A program made the translations under genes and the position numbers. The notes beneath the pieces were generated by a model that searched no databases, had not been told where the DNA came from, and saw only the letters and a list, made by a program, of their open reading frames with translations. From Escherichia coli (GTDB taxonomy: Bacteria; Pseudomonadota; Gammaproteobacteria; Enterobacterales; Enterobacteriaceae), in NCBI RefSeq assembly GCF_030013205.1, contig NZ_CP122648.1: a DNA stretch of 64,000 bases. One strand, written 5' to 3'. Position 1 is the first letter of the stretch; each line of letters begins with the position of its first letter. Of this stretch, positions 1 to 8,574 are shown in pieces.

Positions 1-447
1 CTGAACACTTTCAATTTCGTTATCATTTGAAATAGGAGTAATACAACCATTTATTATGGTATAACCAACGCCATGCTTTTTAAAGATGGAATTGAGATGC
101 TTCGATAGATTAATATATGAATTAGTTCTCTCAATGATGAACTCAATTAAATCATATACCAAATACCATGCTTCCCCATATATATAATCTCGGATAGCAG
201 TCAGCAACGTCTTATCACTTTTGTATCCACTTTCATAACGAGGAATATTATCCGCAGGTTGATTTAGATAATATATCCACACAGACTGCGCACATTTTGT
301 TGCTGTAGCAGTTTGACGATTGTTAGTCCAAAGGAAAAGATATAAGCAATTCCACAATGCCATGCGTGTATCAGAATTAAGATCATTCAGCTGGACATGC
401 TCTCTAACGTCAACATGACCATACCTCACAGAAAATGGCTTTATCAT
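1..447 (-). CDS. hypothetical protein, N-terminal ~149 codons only (gene runs off the window start)
   Basis: ATG at 445-447 on the minus strand opens a stop-free frame to position 1 (MIKPFSVRYGHVDVREHVQLNDLNSD...). Absent from the ORF track because it has no stop in the window. No family recognised. Confidence 0.35.
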   Translation of the reverse strand, partial: MIKPFSVRYGHVDVREHVQLNDLNSDTRMALWNCLYLFLWTNNRQTATATKCAQSVWIYYLNQPADNIPRYESGYKSDKTLLTAIRDYIYGEAWYLVYDLIEFIIERTNSYINLSKHLNSIFKKHGVGYTIINGCITPISNDNEIESVQ

Positions 448-977
448 TCTTCCCCTGCCTGATTGTTATGTTCGTTTAAATTATGCAGTCTAAGTTTGAT
501 ACAATCATATATTAAGCAATAGAATCCATAAAGCCCCGTTGGTGGTAAGACAACAAGCGGAGCCTCTTGCGACTTCATCAGGGTTATGTCAGTTAGTGAG
601 GCTTATCAGGATGACCATGTACCCAAGGGGAGCGAGGCCGAACCGCTGGCAGAGCTTGCATATGGTCTGCAAGTACCGTGACCACCATAAACCTGTTTAT
701 CCCCTGCGGCGTCTCGCGACGGCGACAGAATGGGGGCATCGGGCTAAAATGCGCTGCACTAAAAGTTTTGGGATTGTTTAGAGACGGTGGCTACGTCATA
801 GCTTTCAAGTTGAGTCAGTACGTGTTTGACGCTTGGAACGACACGCCGCTATGAGTTAACATCCCAATTACCACTATCAACCACAGCGGCTTTTTCAAGG
901 GACATAACAGAGCATTTCTTACAGGCAAAAGAGACAGATTTAATCGTCTAACTAACTGTATTGTAAGGAATTTAGTA

Positions 978-1005
978 ACTTGGTGCCGAAGGCCGGACTC
1001 GAACC
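978..1005. repeat. 28-bp direct repeat of the leuX 3' end (island att site, distal copy)
   Basis: acttggtgccgaaggccggactcgaacc is identical to 8292-8319, which covers the 3' end of tRNA-Leu. Classic att duplication of a tRNA-integrated element. Confidence 0.85.
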
Positions 1006-1484
1006 TAAGTCTCTATAACCTGCTGTAATCACGTTCCTGTTAGCTGTTAAGAGAGCAATCGTAGGACCTTTTTGTTCTAGGGGCTACATATTAAGTTTGA
1101 TCCGCTGGACGGAATCAAACCGAGTGTTCGTGGCGGCATAAAACATCAACGTGCCATACCTGCCTTTTAATGTTTCTGGAGGTCTGCCGAGTCGGGAGGA
1201 AAGAACATTTGTCAGCTATGTGGACGTTGAATAAACGCCACTGCGTTCGGATTTTGAAACCAGTTAGACCCCGGCAGACCTTGTTCAGAATAACTATTTA
1301 ACTCAATGTTATTTATATGAATTAAGCCATTAAGAGCCAAAGCGAAACGCCACCGTAACGCACCCGCATTTTGCTGTTTTATTCACTCTTATAGAAACAA
1401 AGGGCTGATGAAACATAAGACTATCAGCATCTAATGAATACTGTTCATCCATACAGCATAAAAATTCATAAACTTACACTTGAG

Positions 1485-1949
1485 CTACTTTCTCAGTTTG
1501 TCCCACCGAACCGCTGATACGATACCCCAGTTGCCGCTAGGATTAGGCCTACGCCATTTTGCTGTCTCCATGCTACGAAGATACTCAAGAGCTTCAGCAA
1601 ACGTGCCAAAACGCTTCTGAGCCGCTTTATCACCTACGCCAAACGAACCATCACGGGTGCTCGCCAAACCGGGGTGAAAACAGGAACCATCGGCTGCGTA
1701 TGGAACCAACAGTTCCGAGTCGTTATCTTCAGATGGGCCAGGCGCTAACAACTGCCACGGCTCAACGCTCAGAGCGTTAGCCAGCACCTCAATCGCATCC
1801 AGAGACGCATTAGAGCCACCACGTTCAATTCTGCTCATATAACTACGTGCAAACCCGCACCGATCGGCAAAGGCCTCTTGGCTCAATCCGGTGGCAATGC
1901 GCAGTTCTTTTACCCGCTCGCCAAACTGTATTCTCAGGGATTTTTTCAT
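1485..1949 (-). CDS. XRE-family (Cro/C1-type) HTH transcriptional regulator with ~90-aa C-terminal domain of unknown function
   Basis: HTH_XRE motif IQFGERVKELRIATGLSQEAFADRCGFARSYMSRIERGGSNASLDAIEVLANAL. Start placed at internal MKKSL; the ORF track extends to 2042 but the extension precedes the HTH and looks spurious. Confidence 0.7.
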   Translation of the reverse strand: MKKSLRIQFGERVKELRIATGLSQEAFADRCGFARSYMSRIERGGSNASLDAIEVLANALSVEPWQLLAPGPSEDNDSELLVPYAADGSCFHPGLASTRDGSFGVGDKAAQKRFGTFAEALEYLRSMETAKWRRPNPSGNWGIVSAVRWDKLRK

Positions 1950-2199
1950 GCACTGAATGTGCAATTTTGACCACTGTAAGGCCACGCTCCATATGAGATA
2001 TTTTGAATCCAATCTCACTTCAGCGAGCTTAGTCACTAGCATTCATCGGCTGTATCATGACAATCCTTTTTGATTCAAAACAAACACCAATGGTGACATT
2101 TAAAACCCAACAAGTATGATGATCATCATCGGTTGGGCGTCACCAGCGTTCGCTATCAGGCGCGATGTGGTTTGGAAAGTGAGGGAATCATGACGGGAG

Positions 2200-2684
2200 C
2201 AGACTTTTTATTACCGATTGCAGCGGGAGCCGCGATTAGCTGGGCCAGTTATAGTGTAGTTGCCCATGCTGTATCAAAGCAGCACATCAGCACGCTACGC
2301 GCAACTGTATGGGGTGCTCTGGGCACTCTCTCATTGGTGCTGGGCGTATGCGCCTTTTCTGCTGTAGGTGCTGAGCATCAGACAGCACGAAAAGATATCG
2401 TATGTGCAGATGACAACCCGGAATGCTATGCGAAAACGCACCATAACCCGGTCAGGGAGTGCAAAAAGGTAATGGATGAGAAAGCGAAGTTTCGCCATGT
2501 GTGGCAAGAAAGCGAAGCGCCTGTATTTAATACTTATCTCTGGCACGATGAGAACGCGAAGATTATTCAGGCATTTGGGCAACAAGCTAAGGTAGTTAAC
2601 AGCCTGGGGATGCTAGCTCCGCTTCAATACTTTTGTGTTTTCAACGCAAAAACAGGAGAAGTCATTGCGGCCTCTTTCGAATAA
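2200..2684 (+). CDS. hypothetical membrane protein: two N-terminal TM helices plus Cys-containing soluble domain
   Basis: Start at MTGADF (ATG 2200) preceded by GAGGGAA RBS. Hydrophobic helices LLPIAAGAAISWASYSVVAHAV and VWGALGTLSLVLGVCAFSAVGA. No family recognised. Confidence 0.55.
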
Positions 2685-2744
2685 AAATGTGAGGGAATTC
2701 ACCCTAACATCAAAAATAAACTTATGTAATGACCTCGCATTTAA

Positions 2745-3590
2745 TTATTCATTTAAAGATTCAAGAAATGTCCAGCCTTTATGAGTAACATAATACATTT
2801 GTCCTTTTGCCCCTCTTTCAATCACAAAATCAAAGGATAACAGTTCGTTAAGTGCGCCCTCCCAACGGGCTACCTCTCTAGCCGAACTTCCACCAAAGGA
2901 TTGATTTCCCGCTTGAATATCCGTGCCACCTAAATGCCTTATCACATAAATTGTTCCGCTATCATCGACACATGCTAATTTCAGCAAACTGAGTGCATCG
3001 GCGGACAAATTACTTTCTGGCAAAGATTGACTTGTATTCGCATCAGGAGAATTGTTAATGGTAGATATAAGAGAAGACAAATAAGGGCTACTAGAAATAA
3101 TTATCGAAAGTTGCCTACGGACTTTTTCTTTGAAATCAGATAAGTCATTAAAAGACTCTATCAATCCCTTTTGCATGCACTCAGTTTTGAACAATTTAAG
3201 AGACTCATATTGTTCTCTATCAAGGCTTTCAGGGGCAACAGGCTTTGAGGAAAAGTAAATCATTGCCGGTTTTCCCGCATTCAAATGACGGTGGATTTCT
3301 TCGACTGTTCCGCTGGCCTCGTTCCCAGTCGGTGAGCCTAGACGAGTCCAAAACACACCGATTAATAAATCACAATCTACTAATAATCTTTGATTAATCA
3401 ACTCCTGAGGCCTAACTCCTAATTCGGGTGATGTATGAGTTTCCCATCCAATTGGTGTCAACATTACTTTTGAACGAGCTGAATTTATATCATTCCACTC
3501 ATGGATCATTTCACGAATGACTTGTCTCTCTTCAGCGACATCACCAGGAGAAGCAATCATTACAGGGATAACAGTTGCTGTGTAAGCCAT
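2745..3590 (-). CDS. hypothetical protein with DUF4062-like (TIR/flavodoxin-like) N-terminal domain and unknown C-terminal domain
   Basis: 281-aa ORF; N-terminal motif VIPVMIASPGDVAEERQVIREMI resembles the DUF4062 signature (hydrophobic strand-S-x-D-x-EER) from memory. GGAGAG RBS 7 nt upstream; start is 14 bp downstream of the recombinase stop. Confidence 0.5.
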   Translation of the reverse strand: MAYTATVIPVMIASPGDVAEERQVIREMIHEWNDINSARSKVMLTPIGWETHTSPELGVRPQELINQRLLVDCDLLIGVFWTRLGSPTGNEASGTVEEIHRHLNAGKPAMIYFSSKPVAPESLDREQYESLKLFKTECMQKGLIESFNDLSDFKEKVRRQLSIIISSSPYLSSLISTINNSPDANTSQSLPESNLSADALSLLKLACVDDSGTIYVIRHLGGTDIQAGNQSFGGSSAREVARWEGALNELLSFDFVIERGAKGQMYYVTHKGWTFLESLNE

Positions 3591-3603
3591 AAACTCTCCA
3601 TAT

Positions 3604-4164
3604 TCAATCGGTAATAGCTGCTACAGTCGCTCTTGAAACGCCATATTGACGCGCTAACGCACTGATACTCAAACCGCTATTCTTTTTCTCTAAAATCTCT
3701 CTACGGGCTTCTGACGCGATTTTAGGAGGTCTGCCCAATTTCTTACCTTCGGCTTTTGCTCGTGATAGTCCCGCCTGAGTGCGCTCAATCAGCAGATCAC
3801 GCTCCATCTCCGCAACCGCGGCGAGCATAGATAATAGCAACTTCCCAGCGGCAGAAGTGAGATCTGTGTTACCAAGCTGGTGGACAAGAACCTTGATATT
3901 ACGGTCAGCCAGCGCCCTTACCGTTTGCAAGACGTCAATCGCATCACGCCCCAGACGATCAAGCTTCGCTACCACCAACGTTTCACCATCGCGGATTTTA
4001 TTGAGCATTTCAGAAAATGCTTTACGTTGCATTGCCGGAACCTTCCCGCTAACAACATCGGCAAACCAGTAATCAATTTGCCACCCAGCCTGCCCAAGCT
4101 CCAGCCGTTGGTTCTCAGTATCCTGCTGCGATGTCGAAACACGTCCGTAGCCAAAAGTTGCCAT
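3604..4164 (-). CDS. small serine recombinase (resolvase/DNA invertase family)
   Basis: MATFGYGRVSTSQQD catalytic-Ser N-terminus, ...LDRLGRD..., C-terminal HTH (LSISALARQYGVSRATV). Start at internal Met; the track extension to 4233 precedes the conserved N-terminus. Confidence 0.85.
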   Translation of the reverse strand: MATFGYGRVSTSQQDTENQRLELGQAGWQIDYWFADVVSGKVPAMQRKAFSEMLNKIRDGETLVVAKLDRLGRDAIDVLQTVRALADRNIKVLVHQLGNTDLTSAAGKLLLSMLAAVAEMERDLLIERTQAGLSRAKAEGKKLGRPPKIASEARREILEKKNSGLSISALARQYGVSRATVAAITD

Positions 4165-4355
4165 TGTTATCTCCCCATCTGACCCCTGCCAGAAAACGAG
4201 GCCAACATTAGGATGGCCTGCCAGAAAAGCCAAGGCTATTTTTCCAACAGTGTGAAAGCGTGCGATTGGGAGGTGCCAGAAAACGGTCGTTTGTTGGCGC
4301 TTAAAACGGATAAAGACATGTTAGGCTGAAACCATCACTTCATAAGGACAACCGA

Positions 4356-4823
4356 AATGATTAAAGACGCGATTTTTCACCGTGCGGTCAATATCGCTAC
4401 TCGTTATCACGAGTCTGGGACGAATCAAAACCATATGCCCTTTTCATAGGGCTAAACCCTTCATACGCCGATGCTGAGAAGGATGATCGCACCTTGAGCC
4501 GCTGCATATCGTTTGCCAAAAGCAGGGGCTACGGTGGCGTATACATGGCCAACCTGTTCGCATTCGTTCACACCCAGCGACATGAAATGATGAAAGCGTC
4601 TGATCCCATTGGCAAAGATAACGATAGCCACTTGATACGTCTTGTTAGCGGTGCCGGACTGGTTGTCGCCGCATGGGGAAATGAAGGAAGACACCTCAAA
4701 CGCTCAACGACCGTCCGACAGCTATTGCCAGAGAGCACAATGTGCTTCGTCTTAAACGCTACAGGTGAGCCGAAGCACCCTTTGTATATGAAAAACGACA
4801 GTGTTCTCATACCTTTAGGTTAA
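4356..4823 (+). pseudogene. DUF1643-like gene, apparently frameshifted
   Basis: ATG near 4356 gives MIKDAIFHRAVNIATRYHESGTNQNH... then a stop. A different frame carries the conserved core ...FIGLNPSYADAEKDDRTLSRCISFAKSRGYGGVYMANLFA... through to the stop at 4823. One frame change around 4410-4440 is needed to join them; exact position uncertain by a few nt. Confidence 0.5.
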
Positions 4824-5828
4824 CATCGATAACTGCGTTCAGAATATGAACGCAGCCATATGATATATATGACTTTTCTTTAAAATGATGGTGTGCTAGC
4901 TTCTCTCCTGACACCTACCTCATGCGGTAAACCGGTCCGGGTAGGTGGAGATCACCGCTGTTTAGCGGAAGACGTCAGGATGGGAACTCTGCGTAACGTT
5001 GATTGTGGTAGGTAGGGCGCGCAAGCGTTTGATGCAGCCAAGCAGAGGGTGAAAGTAGCTATCGGCGGATTCTTGAGTAGCTTCTTTTGCGCATAATGCA
5101 TCTTTCAAGAAAGGTCGTCACACCACGAGGAAGACTTGATCTTCATCTGGCAAGGGGAACCGAGCAACCTACAGGCTATCTTCTCAGATGGCCTTATGGT
5201 TGATATGTCCGGCTTCCCCCCCGAGGAAGGGTTTACATCTTAAAGAACAAGTTATGTTTTAACATTTTTAACAATTACACTTCTCTGCTGTTTGGTGTCT
5301 TATGGCGTTGCCGTCAAAAGTAAACCTGCCGTTTTTACCTCTCCTGCGTAACAACCAAATACGAACCAGAAGCTGCTAACGTTCAACGTGTTCGCGGTGT
5401 AAATGCAGCCAGATAAGTTGGGAGCGAAAAAGTGGATGCCCTAGGTTTGGAAGCGCCCCTCTCAGGCATAGCGTCCGAAAATTTCCACGGCGGCAGGCTT
5501 ATCCTTATAGAGCCAAACAGACTCAAAAGTTAAGAAGCGCGGTAAAGCTTAAAGCTCGCCCAGATTTCTCATTGATTGCTCGAACTCCGCTACGCTTGTT
5601 TCAACTGGCTTCGCCAGTCACTCTATGAGAGCGCCGCGAATTCTGCACCATGATTTCGACTACCTTCTTTAAAACACTCGCCAGAGAGCCTTACAGCGCG
5701 TTTGAACCGCATATCGCAGCTTTTGCTTACGGATGACTGTCTGATTAGCAGTAGCTTCATGGCCCAGTCCGGTTTACTTTATTGCTATCAACAAGGGAGC
5801 CGTCCAGAGGCGACGCGGAGATAATGCT

Positions 5829-6161
5829 TTGAGAACCGTCGAGATACTGCAATACACCTTACGCAAAGGCAGCGGTGCCGCTTTTCACGCCATTATGCAG
5901 GAAATCAGTGTTCCCCTACACCAACGCCACGGGATCGATGTTGTTTCGTTTGGTAACTCTCTGCATGACCCGGACTGCTATTACCTGATTCGCGCCTTTG
6001 TCAGCCCTAAAAGCATGACTACGGTTCTCGACGCTTTTTACGCAAGCGATGACTGGCGCAGCGGCCCGCGCGAAGACATCATTGGCAACATAGAGGCCAG
6101 CATTAAAACAGTGATAAATCTACCATCAGAAAGCGTAGAAGGGCTGCGGGTGCAATCGTAG
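5829..6161 (+). CDS. NIPSNAP/dimeric alpha-beta-barrel-like small protein
   Basis: 110 aa, TTG start with GGAG 8 nt upstream. Sequence pattern (EILQYTLRKG...YYLIRAF...DDW) resembles the NIPSNAP family from memory. Confidence 0.5.
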   Translation: MRTVEILQYTLRKGSGAAFHAIMQEISVPLHQRHGIDVVSFGNSLHDPDCYYLIRAFVSPKSMTTVLDAFYASDDWRSGPREDIIGNIEASIKTVINLPSESVEGLRVQS

Positions 6162-6293
6162 GTCATCAAGTTTCACCAAACGTGTTTTGAGCGTCTCCAA
6201 ATTCAGCACTATGAAATCCACCACCCTTAATAAAAAACGCGCCAGGAAGCGTCCCAGCGCATTCAAGCATCACTCAACTGAATAGTAACTGAT

Positions 6294-8246
6294 TCAACCT
6301 GTTTGTTTGCCACGCTTTCTTCGCAACGCATCTCTGACAGCATCCAGCCCGTCAGGAATGTTGAATTCCGCTATATCAGGTAACGAAAAATCAATTTTCT
6401 CCACGACTTCAATCATATGAATTGGTTTGAGGTCTTTGCTATATCGCACTTCCGTTTCAGTTTCGCCGCGCACATGCCCAAGTAGCTGCGCTCGTAATTC
6501 TGAGCTAACGCCCTTCTCCTTGAGCAAAGTCGAAACTGAGTGGCGAAAAGAATGGAAAGATTTGCTTCTGTTCCTCTCGAGTTTCAACCGCCCCGCAAGC
6601 AACGATTCATTGAACCATGCGGAAACTGGCCTACCATAGCCTTTTGTTTTATGTGGTTTAAGCTCCGGGAAGAGACGGGTATACCCTGCATCTTTTAAGG
6701 CGTTCACGTAGTCGATGAAACCGAGACTAATCAGCTTTGAATGGAGCGGAATCTTGCGGCGAGCATTAGCATTTTTGAGTTTCTTTCCGCTTTCATTATC
6801 GCTTTCAAGGTTCAAATAATAGACGCCGTCGTCTGCCAGAACATCACTCAGCAGTAACTGAGCGATTTCATTAACTCGCGCCCCCGTCATCAAGCCCAGC
6901 AAAGGTGCCCAATAGTTAAACGGGCAATATTGATGGAATCGCCCTTGCGCATTGCGTTCAACAGTTCCAGCCTCAAACCACGGTAACGAAAAAATCGCTT
7001 TAATTTCATGCGGTTCAAATATGTCAGTGTGATCCTGATCTCGCTCATCTTTATCATCGGATGGAAAAAAGTTTTCGCATGGCGATTTCAGTAGCTTACC
7101 GTCAGCAACAGCCCACTTCATTGCACCATAAATGCCGTTGATATACTTCCTAACGGATTCCTCAGTCATCAATTTATCGCCGCATTCTGCCGCTTTGGCG
7201 ATTAACTGATCCAGCGTTTTCACTCCATATTTAGCTTTGACTAAATTACGGTTTGCTGGGATCGTGCGCAGTTTGCTCTCATAAGCCCGGAGGAAATCGC
7301 GATCAAAATCTTCCAACTGAATGTCACCCATCGCTTCGATCATAAAGCTGAAATAGTTACGGATATCACTTATAGCCGACTCCGATACCTTGCCCTTGCG
7401 CCGATGCTTTAGATATTCAGAGCATAACCACGACAGATTCTTAGTGTAATACTTTCGATTAACATACTCGTTATCGATAGTAGGGGCAGGAGCGGCAAGA
7501 GGCACGGTAGGATGAACACTAGCGACTGGAGGCGTGGTCTTAGCCAGCCAATCAAGCCTTAGGCTTTCTGCATGGACTTTATTGATCAAAAGCGTATCGG
7601 GTTTAATTACCGGCCAACCGGAGGTGAAAAACCAACCGCCTTTAGCGTCGCTTCCGGCAGTTTTGAACACCGAAGCTTCTGAATAACCGTCGCTAATAAT
7701 GTTACGTAAATGTGCTGGTTGCGCAGTGAGTTGCAGATAGCCTTTAGCAACCCCCTCGATACCCTTCTCTTCGCCATAATTAAGAACGTAACTGCCATCA
7801 AGCGGGTCTAGCTCAGCCTCAGAGAGCGCTGCAACATAAAAGCCAGCCTGCCCCGTCGCCAGCCAGAATACGGGCAGATTACGGTTCATCACCGCCTGTA
7901 TTAATTGCGCAACAGGCAACTCAACTGACTGAGCAAAGTTAGAAAGCGAGATCATACCCTCACCAGCAAGCAGCGGGGCGCAGTCACTTAAAGTTCGATA
8001 ATCCAATTGTTCATACTCTTGTAAGGTCTGATACCAGACCGCCAACAGGAGCGCGGACTTCTGCTTTGCTTCATGAAGATCGTGAGTGCCTGTTGAAGTG
8101 TGAATCTCACACTGTCCTGCGTATCGACGAAAACGTTGGGGAATGCTAATGCGGACAACATAAATGCCGCTGGTTCGACGATAGAGTTTATATCGCTGAG
8201 ACATCGCCTCGTATACCCTTTTGTAAGAGGGGCTACGCGATTTCAA
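6294..8246 (-). CDS. tyrosine-type site-specific integrase (650 aa, unusually long)
   Basis: C-terminal catalytic region HSFRHSVSTLL...LLGH...; lambda-like arm-binding N-terminus (YKLYRRTSGIYVVRISIP); directly adjacent to tRNA-Leu. A ~250-aa central region is of unclear homology. Confidence 0.85.
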   Translation of the reverse strand: MKSRSPSYKRVYEAMSQRYKLYRRTSGIYVVRISIPQRFRRYAGQCEIHTSTGTHDLHEAKQKSALLLAVWYQTLQEYEQLDYRTLSDCAPLLAGEGMISLSNFAQSVELPVAQLIQAVMNRNLPVFWLATGQAGFYVAALSEAELDPLDGSYVLNYGEEKGIEGVAKGYLQLTAQPAHLRNIISDGYSEASVFKTAGSDAKGGWFFTSGWPVIKPDTLLINKVHAESLRLDWLAKTTPPVASVHPTVPLAAPAPTIDNEYVNRKYYTKNLSWLCSEYLKHRRKGKVSESAISDIRNYFSFMIEAMGDIQLEDFDRDFLRAYESKLRTIPANRNLVKAKYGVKTLDQLIAKAAECGDKLMTEESVRKYINGIYGAMKWAVADGKLLKSPCENFFPSDDKDERDQDHTDIFEPHEIKAIFSLPWFEAGTVERNAQGRFHQYCPFNYWAPLLGLMTGARVNEIAQLLLSDVLADDGVYYLNLESDNESGKKLKNANARRKIPLHSKLISLGFIDYVNALKDAGYTRLFPELKPHKTKGYGRPVSAWFNESLLAGRLKLERNRSKSFHSFRHSVSTLLKEKGVSSELRAQLLGHVRGETETEVRYSKDLKPIHMIEVVEKIDFSLPDIAEFNIPDGLDAVRDALRRKRGKQTG

Positions 8247-8294
8247 GCAAAATTATGGATTAAATTGTTTTAAAACAACGACTTAGATAAGACT

Positions 8295-8379
8295 TGGTGC
8301 CGAAGGCCGGACTCGAACCGGCACGTATTTCTACGGTTGATTTTGAATCAACTGCGTCTACCGATTTCGCCACTTCGGC
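8295..8379 (-). tRNA. leuX: tRNA-Leu (CAA), leuX
   Basis: Reverse complement reads GCCGAAGTGGCGAAATCGGTAGACGCAGTTGATTCAAAATCAACCGTAGAAATACGTGCCGGTTCGAGTCCGGCCTTCGGCACCA (85 nt, CAA anticodon, CCA end). Confidence 0.95.
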
Positions 8380-8574
8380 ACTGAAGAGGTATGCGGAAAA
8401 CGTTGTGGATTATACCTGTCGCACGCCACCATGCAAGCGCCAGCTTGCACCCACCTCGCTAAGTGCTGAAATTTTCAGCATTACACTCAGCGATATGTAA
8501 CCTTTGTCACACTCCAGGCACCCCGCCCTGCCATGCTCTACACTTCCCAAACAACACCAGAGAAGGACCCAAAA

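Follow-up and report, generated by a model that had tools for sequence, protein, structure and literature searches.

The leuX locus of Escherichia coli carries, within the 64,000-nt stretch of contig NZ_CP122648.1 (assembly GCF_030013205.1) analysed here and referred to as the window, a tyrosine integrase gene with an open reading frame of 650 codons, and it raises the question of what occupies the long middle of this protein and what it contributes to recombination at a tRNA gene. The initial annotation had described an integrase with a lambda-like arm-binding N-terminus, a recognisable catalytic C-terminus and a central insertion of about 250 aa (residues 90-330), and regarded its length as unusual. 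The frame is indeed uninterrupted, from a TTG codon at 8246 to position 6294 on the minus strand. The gene is real and not a chance ORF, since it is found in 601 of 5,426 complete E. coli genomes and its central region has dN/dS values of 0.14-0.29. The match covers at least 80% of the gene in 599 of these genomes; among the carriers, 350 have an allele of at least 99% identity and 242 an allele at 80-90%, the latter group including O157:H7, where it is likewise at leuX.

The start codon had been left between a Met codon at 8246 and one 14 codons downstream. The codon at 8246 is a TTG, and the second choice, ATG 8204, is favoured: GAGG lies 4 nt upstream of it, and NCBI has the identical gene of E. 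coli ML35 begin at this codon (WP_000083138.1, 636 aa). Part of the 14-codon extension coincides with a conserved non-coding DNA motif (see below), which makes 636 aa the better length, and ATG 8204 is almost certainly the true start. Residue numbers refer to the 636-aa protein unless stated otherwise, and Pfam coordinates are given in the 650-aa numbering.

Table 1. Positions in the window of the integrase gene, its domains and the surrounding island features.
Feature	Coordinates	Strand	Remarks
attR core, second copy of the 28-bp repeat	978..1005	.	Distal end of the 7,314-bp island
Distal arm, tandem candidate arm-type sites CCTAGAACAAAAAGG + GTCCTACGATTGC	1055..1081	-	13 bp apart; position conserved in Yersinia, Pantoea and the tRNA-Thr element
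HTH_31 (Cro/C1-type) regulator, 154 aa	1485..1949	-	Third co-conserved gene
Small serine recombinase, 186 aa	3604..4164	-	Co-conserved partner gene of the island family
Terminator-like hairpin and T-run	6235..6264	-	30 nt past the int stop codon
Integrase CDS, 636 aa plus stop	6294..8204	-	From ATG 8204; the 650-codon ORF from TTG 8246 is the mechanical maximum
Catalytic domain, residues 393-636	6297..7028	-	R443, K477, H551, R554, H577, Y588
Core-binding domain (Phage_int_SAM_5), residues 257-380	7065..7436	-	Pfam, Foldseek
Pro/Ala-rich tether, residues 227-256	7437..7526	-	Residues 223-243 predicted disordered (pLDDT <50)
Central module, residues 63-226	7527..8018	-	No annotation; one compact unit, acidic (pI 4.6), limited to this integrase clade
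Lobe 2 of the module, residues 126-205	7590..7829	-	Hypervariable mosaic cassette
Lobe 1 of the module, residues 84-125	7830..7955	-	Beta-alpha-alpha-beta hairpin; pattern G.I.L..AA...G.....L..E..N
N-terminal DUF6538 domain, residues 1-62	8019..8204	-	pI 10.2; predicted beta-beta-alpha-beta then long helix; presumed arm-binding
Int-proximal candidate arm-type site CCTCTTACAAAAGGGT	8215..8230	-	Conserved in at least nine module-bearing loci
attL core, 28-bp direct repeat over the tRNA 3' end	8292..8319	.	Adjacent to int
tRNA-Leu(CAA), leuX	8295..8379	-	Integration target; directly upstream of int, same strand

The protein is an intact tyrosine integrase and a member of the tyrosine recombinase superfamily. 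Pfam (650-aa numbering) assigns DUF6538 at 21-77, Phage_int_SAM_5 at 273-390 and Phage_integrase at 450-596 (PF00589, 37.6 bits, cut-off 27.1), the main integrase family of PHROGs covers residues 256-617, and all six catalytic residues listed in Table 1 are intact and conserved. A sequence search of the PDB with the whole protein returns nothing significant. Foldseek with the full-length AlphaFold model matches the lambda, Tn1549, Brujita, XerH and Cre recombinases at E-values of 1e-6 to 1e-3, these matches being limited to the C-terminal ~370 residues. The catalytic C-terminus had thus been read correctly; the N-terminus had not, as Pfam gives neither a lambda nor a P4 arm-binding family there and no known arm-binding Pfam family matches its sequence. 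It matches PF20172 (DUF6538) alone (33.7 bits against a cut-off of 27, and 38.9 bits for the isolated N-terminus), and the protein belongs to this uncharacterised DUF6538 group, for which a literature search found no papers. The AF2 secondary structure of the N-terminal domain (strand 7-9, strand 15-20, helix 23-29, strand 33-37, helix 43-75) is compatible with a three-stranded-sheet-plus-helix arm-binding domain, and an arm-binding role is presumed from this predicted fold together with the conserved arm sites, and not from homology.

The element that the integrase presumably moves can be delimited precisely. It is bounded by the 28-bp direct repeat, and the empty site reconstructed from window 600-1005 and 8320-8720 occurs without interruption, at 100% identity, in E. 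coli ATCC 11775, C, S88 and others (222 genomes match the sequence at 80% coverage or more). The 7,314 bp have therefore entered the 3' end of leuX by a precise, site-specific insertion. On the other side of leuX is the E. coli core (ahr, yjgR, lptGF and pepA). The cargo genes are, in order, the HTH_31 regulator, a membrane protein, a 281-aa protein, the 186-aa serine recombinase, a frameshifted DUF1643 gene and a NIPSNAP-family protein. The 281-aa protein (2745-3590, minus strand) matches the N-terminal part of the PADLOC candidate PDC-S60 (E 6e-27) and, just under the Pfam cut-off, DUF4062; it is probably the defence payload of the island. leuX is described as the defence-island hotspot that is most heavily occupied in E. 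coli (PMC12707154). No excisionase-like ORF was found in the island, small ORFs included, and an Rfam search of window positions 1-9000 returns only the tRNA. A segment of about 1 kb within the island (4824-5828) lacks both ORFs of at least 50 aa and Rfam matches, and the Yersinia element holds a comparable gene-poor gap. To the left of the distal repeat (window 1-978 and L001 1-6700) lie the remains of an older island, which include the fec operon, copies of IS3 and IS30 and an AbiJ-NTD4 gene; the 7.3-kb element therefore inserted in tandem, ahead of an island already resident at leuX. The element is followed by a P4-type integrase, or what remains of one, in E. kobei and O157:H7.

Motifs resembling TCCTACAAA flank the crossover core at fixed distances, one on the int-proximal side and two in tandem on the distal side. 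The int-proximal motif, which begins 66-67 nt past the tRNA end and lies 8-14 nt before the int start, overlaps the int leader and is shared, with the consensus CTCCTACAAARGGGT, by all module-bearing loci. The spacing between the distal pair and the repeat end stays at 84-85 nt in the E. coli, Yersinia, Pantoea and tRNA-Thr elements, and the positions of the motifs are conserved across elements at leuX, tRNA-Gly and tRNA-Thr. They are good candidates for arm-type sites. The motif is absent upstream of three DUF6538 integrases that do not have the central module and that likewise adjoin tRNA or tmRNA genes. Past the tandem motifs, about 90 bp inside the distal end, a 28-nt stretch (window 1094-1121) is 68% identical to the att core repeat and may be due to chance or represent a degenerate secondary site. 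In a simple scan the interval from leuX to the int start (8205-8294) shows no sigma-70-like promoter, and a candidate arm site lies close to the start codon; this suggests that int is expressed by read-through from leuX or is autoregulated by integrase binding.

Between the N-terminal and core-binding domains Pfam leaves some 195 residues unassigned (78-272 in the 650-aa numbering, 63-256 in the 636-aa protein). These comprise a module of about 164 aa and a tether of about 30 aa, and the insertion was thus overestimated, its proposed range overrunning the core-binding domain by some 60 residues. The interpretation as an inserted accessory domain fares better: predicted alone by AF2 from 51 diverse sequences, residues 63-226 have a pLDDT of 94.6 and a pTM of 0.85, and on the strength of this model we regard the module as a genuine discrete domain that folds independently. 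The full-length model has a folded stretch at residues 80-222 (pLDDT 85-90) and a disordered one at 223-243, the arrangement of the domains relative to one another being uncertain (pTM 0.49). The centre also lacks recognisable sequence homology, as had been noted. Pfam, NCBIfam, PHROGs and PADLOC searches with the protein or its centre give only integrase and DUF6538 signals, the centre yielding nothing even at E ≤10; Pfam has no match to any of the 51 module members, the best PDB hit with a profile of the same 51 sequences has an E-value of 0.11, and Foldseek of the module against viral structures (BFVD) finds no match (best E 0.057).

The module is composed of two lobes. Lobe 1 has a predicted topology that resembles MerR/Xis-type winged helices over ~52-60 residues, with one of the 51 members matching HTH_17 (MerR/excisionase) at an E-value of 0.2 and no significant Pfam match; no structural match was found for lobe 2. 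An exhaustive profile search of 1.84 billion cluster representatives places the module in only 75 clusters at E ≤0.001. Where the N-terminus is retained, the module nearly always starts near residue 63, in proteins of ~630-725 aa or fragments, and in none of the 75 is it a free-standing gene. From this distribution the module is confined to one clade of long DUF6538 integrases. The length of the protein is not unusual within its own family, the DUF6538 integrases recovered spanning 415-725 aa and commonly having long middle regions.

Full-length homologues adjoin leuX in Yersinia, Pantoea and E. kobei, and the Yersinia and Pantoea elements are 7.3-8.9 kb long and bounded by tRNA 3'-end repeats. 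Remoter homologues (35-39% identity) adjoin tRNA-Gly(CCC) or tRNA-Thr(CGT). One tRNA-Gly relative has the tRNA 3'-end repeat twice, 179 bp apart, upstream of int (L011 1479-1682), suggesting that a tandem or previous integration has left a trace there. Most of the module-bearing elements examined have the integrase, the serine recombinase and the HTH_31 regulator in common and vary in the cargo between them. The serine recombinase (window 3604-4164, minus strand, compared with L009 15476-16042 and L010 9300-9866) keeps 69-88% identity even between elements that differ in their tRNA target and have integrases of only 35-39% identity.

Two properties of the module bear most directly on its role. 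All 51 members have an acidic module, whose net charge averages -7.3 (range -15 to -1) and whose pI averages 5.0, whereas in the window protein the domains on either side of it have pI values of 10.2, 9.0 and 9.3. The module also evolves faster than the rest of the protein, while remaining under purifying selection as all of the integrase domains are, and the variation is greatest in lobe 2, which has 29-42% identity to the window allele in proteins with 55-98% identity over the other domains. In the E. kobei protein a lobe 2 of the window type (89%) is joined to a C-terminal half of the Yersinia type (72-73%), and the window and O157 alleles have near-identical N-terminal domains and the same attL arm with different lobes 2. 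There are at least two very divergent lobe-2 types (~30-40% identity), shuffled among otherwise similar integrases.

The integrase could bridge arm and core sites in the manner of the lambda-type integrases, the basic DUF6538 domain reading the arm sites and the core-binding and catalytic domains acting at the core. The central module would most likely be an accessory, non-catalytic domain acting through protein-protein contacts, and we put the chances of this explanation as a whole at about even. The module might help to assemble or regulate the recombination complex (intasome), it might determine direction where the island itself has no gene for an excisionase, and together with the tether it might fix how far apart the arm-bound and core-bound parts can lie. 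Because the module is acidic in every member and lobe 2 is hypervariable, a protein-interaction or regulatory role is favoured over that of a further DNA-binding domain, and the exchange of lobe 2 while the att and arm sites stay unchanged also supports the explanation. Against it, the fold of lobe 1 is one typical of DNA-binding domains, no structural homologue gives the module a function, and no partner protein was found, the lobe-2 type showing no co-variation with either the recombinase or the HTH_31 protein of the island in the few data points available.

The fold of lobe 1 also leads to the foremost alternative, in which the module would be one more sequence-specific DNA-binding domain, its winged-helix lobe reading TCCTACAAA-type or other accessory sites, and would serve as an excisionase-like architectural element built into the integrase. 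The motif occurs only with module-bearing integrases, so the module could be its reader, and both the helix-turn-helix-like sequence pattern of lobe 1 and the lack of a separate excisionase gene fit with this. We nonetheless think it doubtful, if possible: no basic DNA-contacting surface is found on lobe 1, which has a mean net charge of -2.2 within a module that is acidic throughout, its presumed recognition helix (helix 2) has a conserved Glu and few basic residues, no Pfam helix-turn-helix family matches significantly, and the basic DUF6538 domain is equally clade-specific and would be the conventional reader of arm sites.

A passive role is another alternative, the module being a spacer with no specific partner and one clade's version of the variable middle region of DUF6538 integrases. 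Other members of 500-620 aa have 150-200 unalignable residues at the same position, and lobe 2 tolerates replacement of 60-70% of its sequence. A spacer would not, however, be expected to have so compact and so confidently predicted a fold, to be retained from Enterobacterales to Variovorax at 17-30% identity under purifying selection, or to conserve surface-type residues (D68, W119, D126, R132, D135, K209, E213 and R216), and we consider this reading unlikely.

A more elaborate form of the protein-contact explanation would make the acidic module and its fast-evolving lobe 2 a partner-recognition or sensor domain that ties the integration or excision of such small islands with defence genes to a rapidly evolving host, phage or island protein. 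This is a speculation that we would not expect to prove correct; if it did, directionality or trigger control would be built into the integrase instead of residing in a separate excisionase, and the module might work together with the unusually conserved serine recombinase of the island. Finally, that the ORF is an artefact, either a frameshift fusion of two genes (as the initial annotation had considered) or a decaying pseudogene, is hardly credible, for although some genomes have truncated or partial copies (P0017, P0037-P0041, H28 and H29), collinear full-length homologues of 630-690 aa are present in at least six genera, near-complete matches are the rule in E. coli, purifying selection acts on all domains and the module is never seen as a separate gene.

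These observations define a small clade of integrases that target tRNA genes and in which a folded domain, hitherto undescribed, separates the presumed arm-binding from the core-binding domain. Its members also share conserved candidate arm sites and a constant set of three backbone genes (integrase, serine recombinase and HTH regulator). The observations supply a ready-made domain definition for databases, and the function of the module, once known, would show how very small excisionase-less islands control their insertion and excision. Nothing known of tyrosine recombination is overturned, and the enzyme is otherwise an ordinary one.

Among the closest known systems are the other, uncharacterised PF20172 (DUF6538) integrases, which have the same N-terminal domain and C-terminal half, adjoin tRNA or tmRNA genes and are also long (415-620 aa), but have middle regions with no detectable homology to the module and int leaders that lack the TCCTACAAA motif. 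Clade-specific extra domains that decorate the core-binding and catalytic core are familiar from the tyrosine recombinase survey of Smyshlyaev et al. 2021 (PMC8138268), examples being RitA with two core-binding domains, TnpR with DUF3701 and the insertions in TnpA; the passages of that survey consulted describe no domain between arm-binding and core-binding domains and no acidic winged-helix-like module. Lobe 1 shares its predicted beta-alpha-alpha-beta hairpin topology with MerR/Xis-type winged helices (pSK1 Par, RacA, TorI and CbpM), from which it differs in being acidic and not basic, in lacking membership of their sequence families, and in sitting inside an integrase, packed against a second lobe. 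By its domain content the protein does not group with the P4 or lambda families, and P4/IntSXT-type membership was rejected in that DUF4102, Arm-DNA-bind_3 and Phage_int_M give no match at E-values up to 1-10; a true P4-type integrase adjoins the E. kobei relative, for contrast. It nevertheless shares with lambda Int and the P4/IntSXT-type integrases the catalytic and core-binding domains and a small basic N-terminal domain, integration at a tRNA 3' end with a short direct repeat and int adjoining attL, and repeated motifs on both arms, here candidate arm-type sites. It departs from them in having no Xis gene in its island, in the N-terminal domain, which is DUF6538 and not Arm-DNA-bind or DUF4102, in its length of 636 aa against roughly 350-420 aa, and, relative to lambda Int, in the 164-residue acidic folded module and tether that stand in place of a short coupler.
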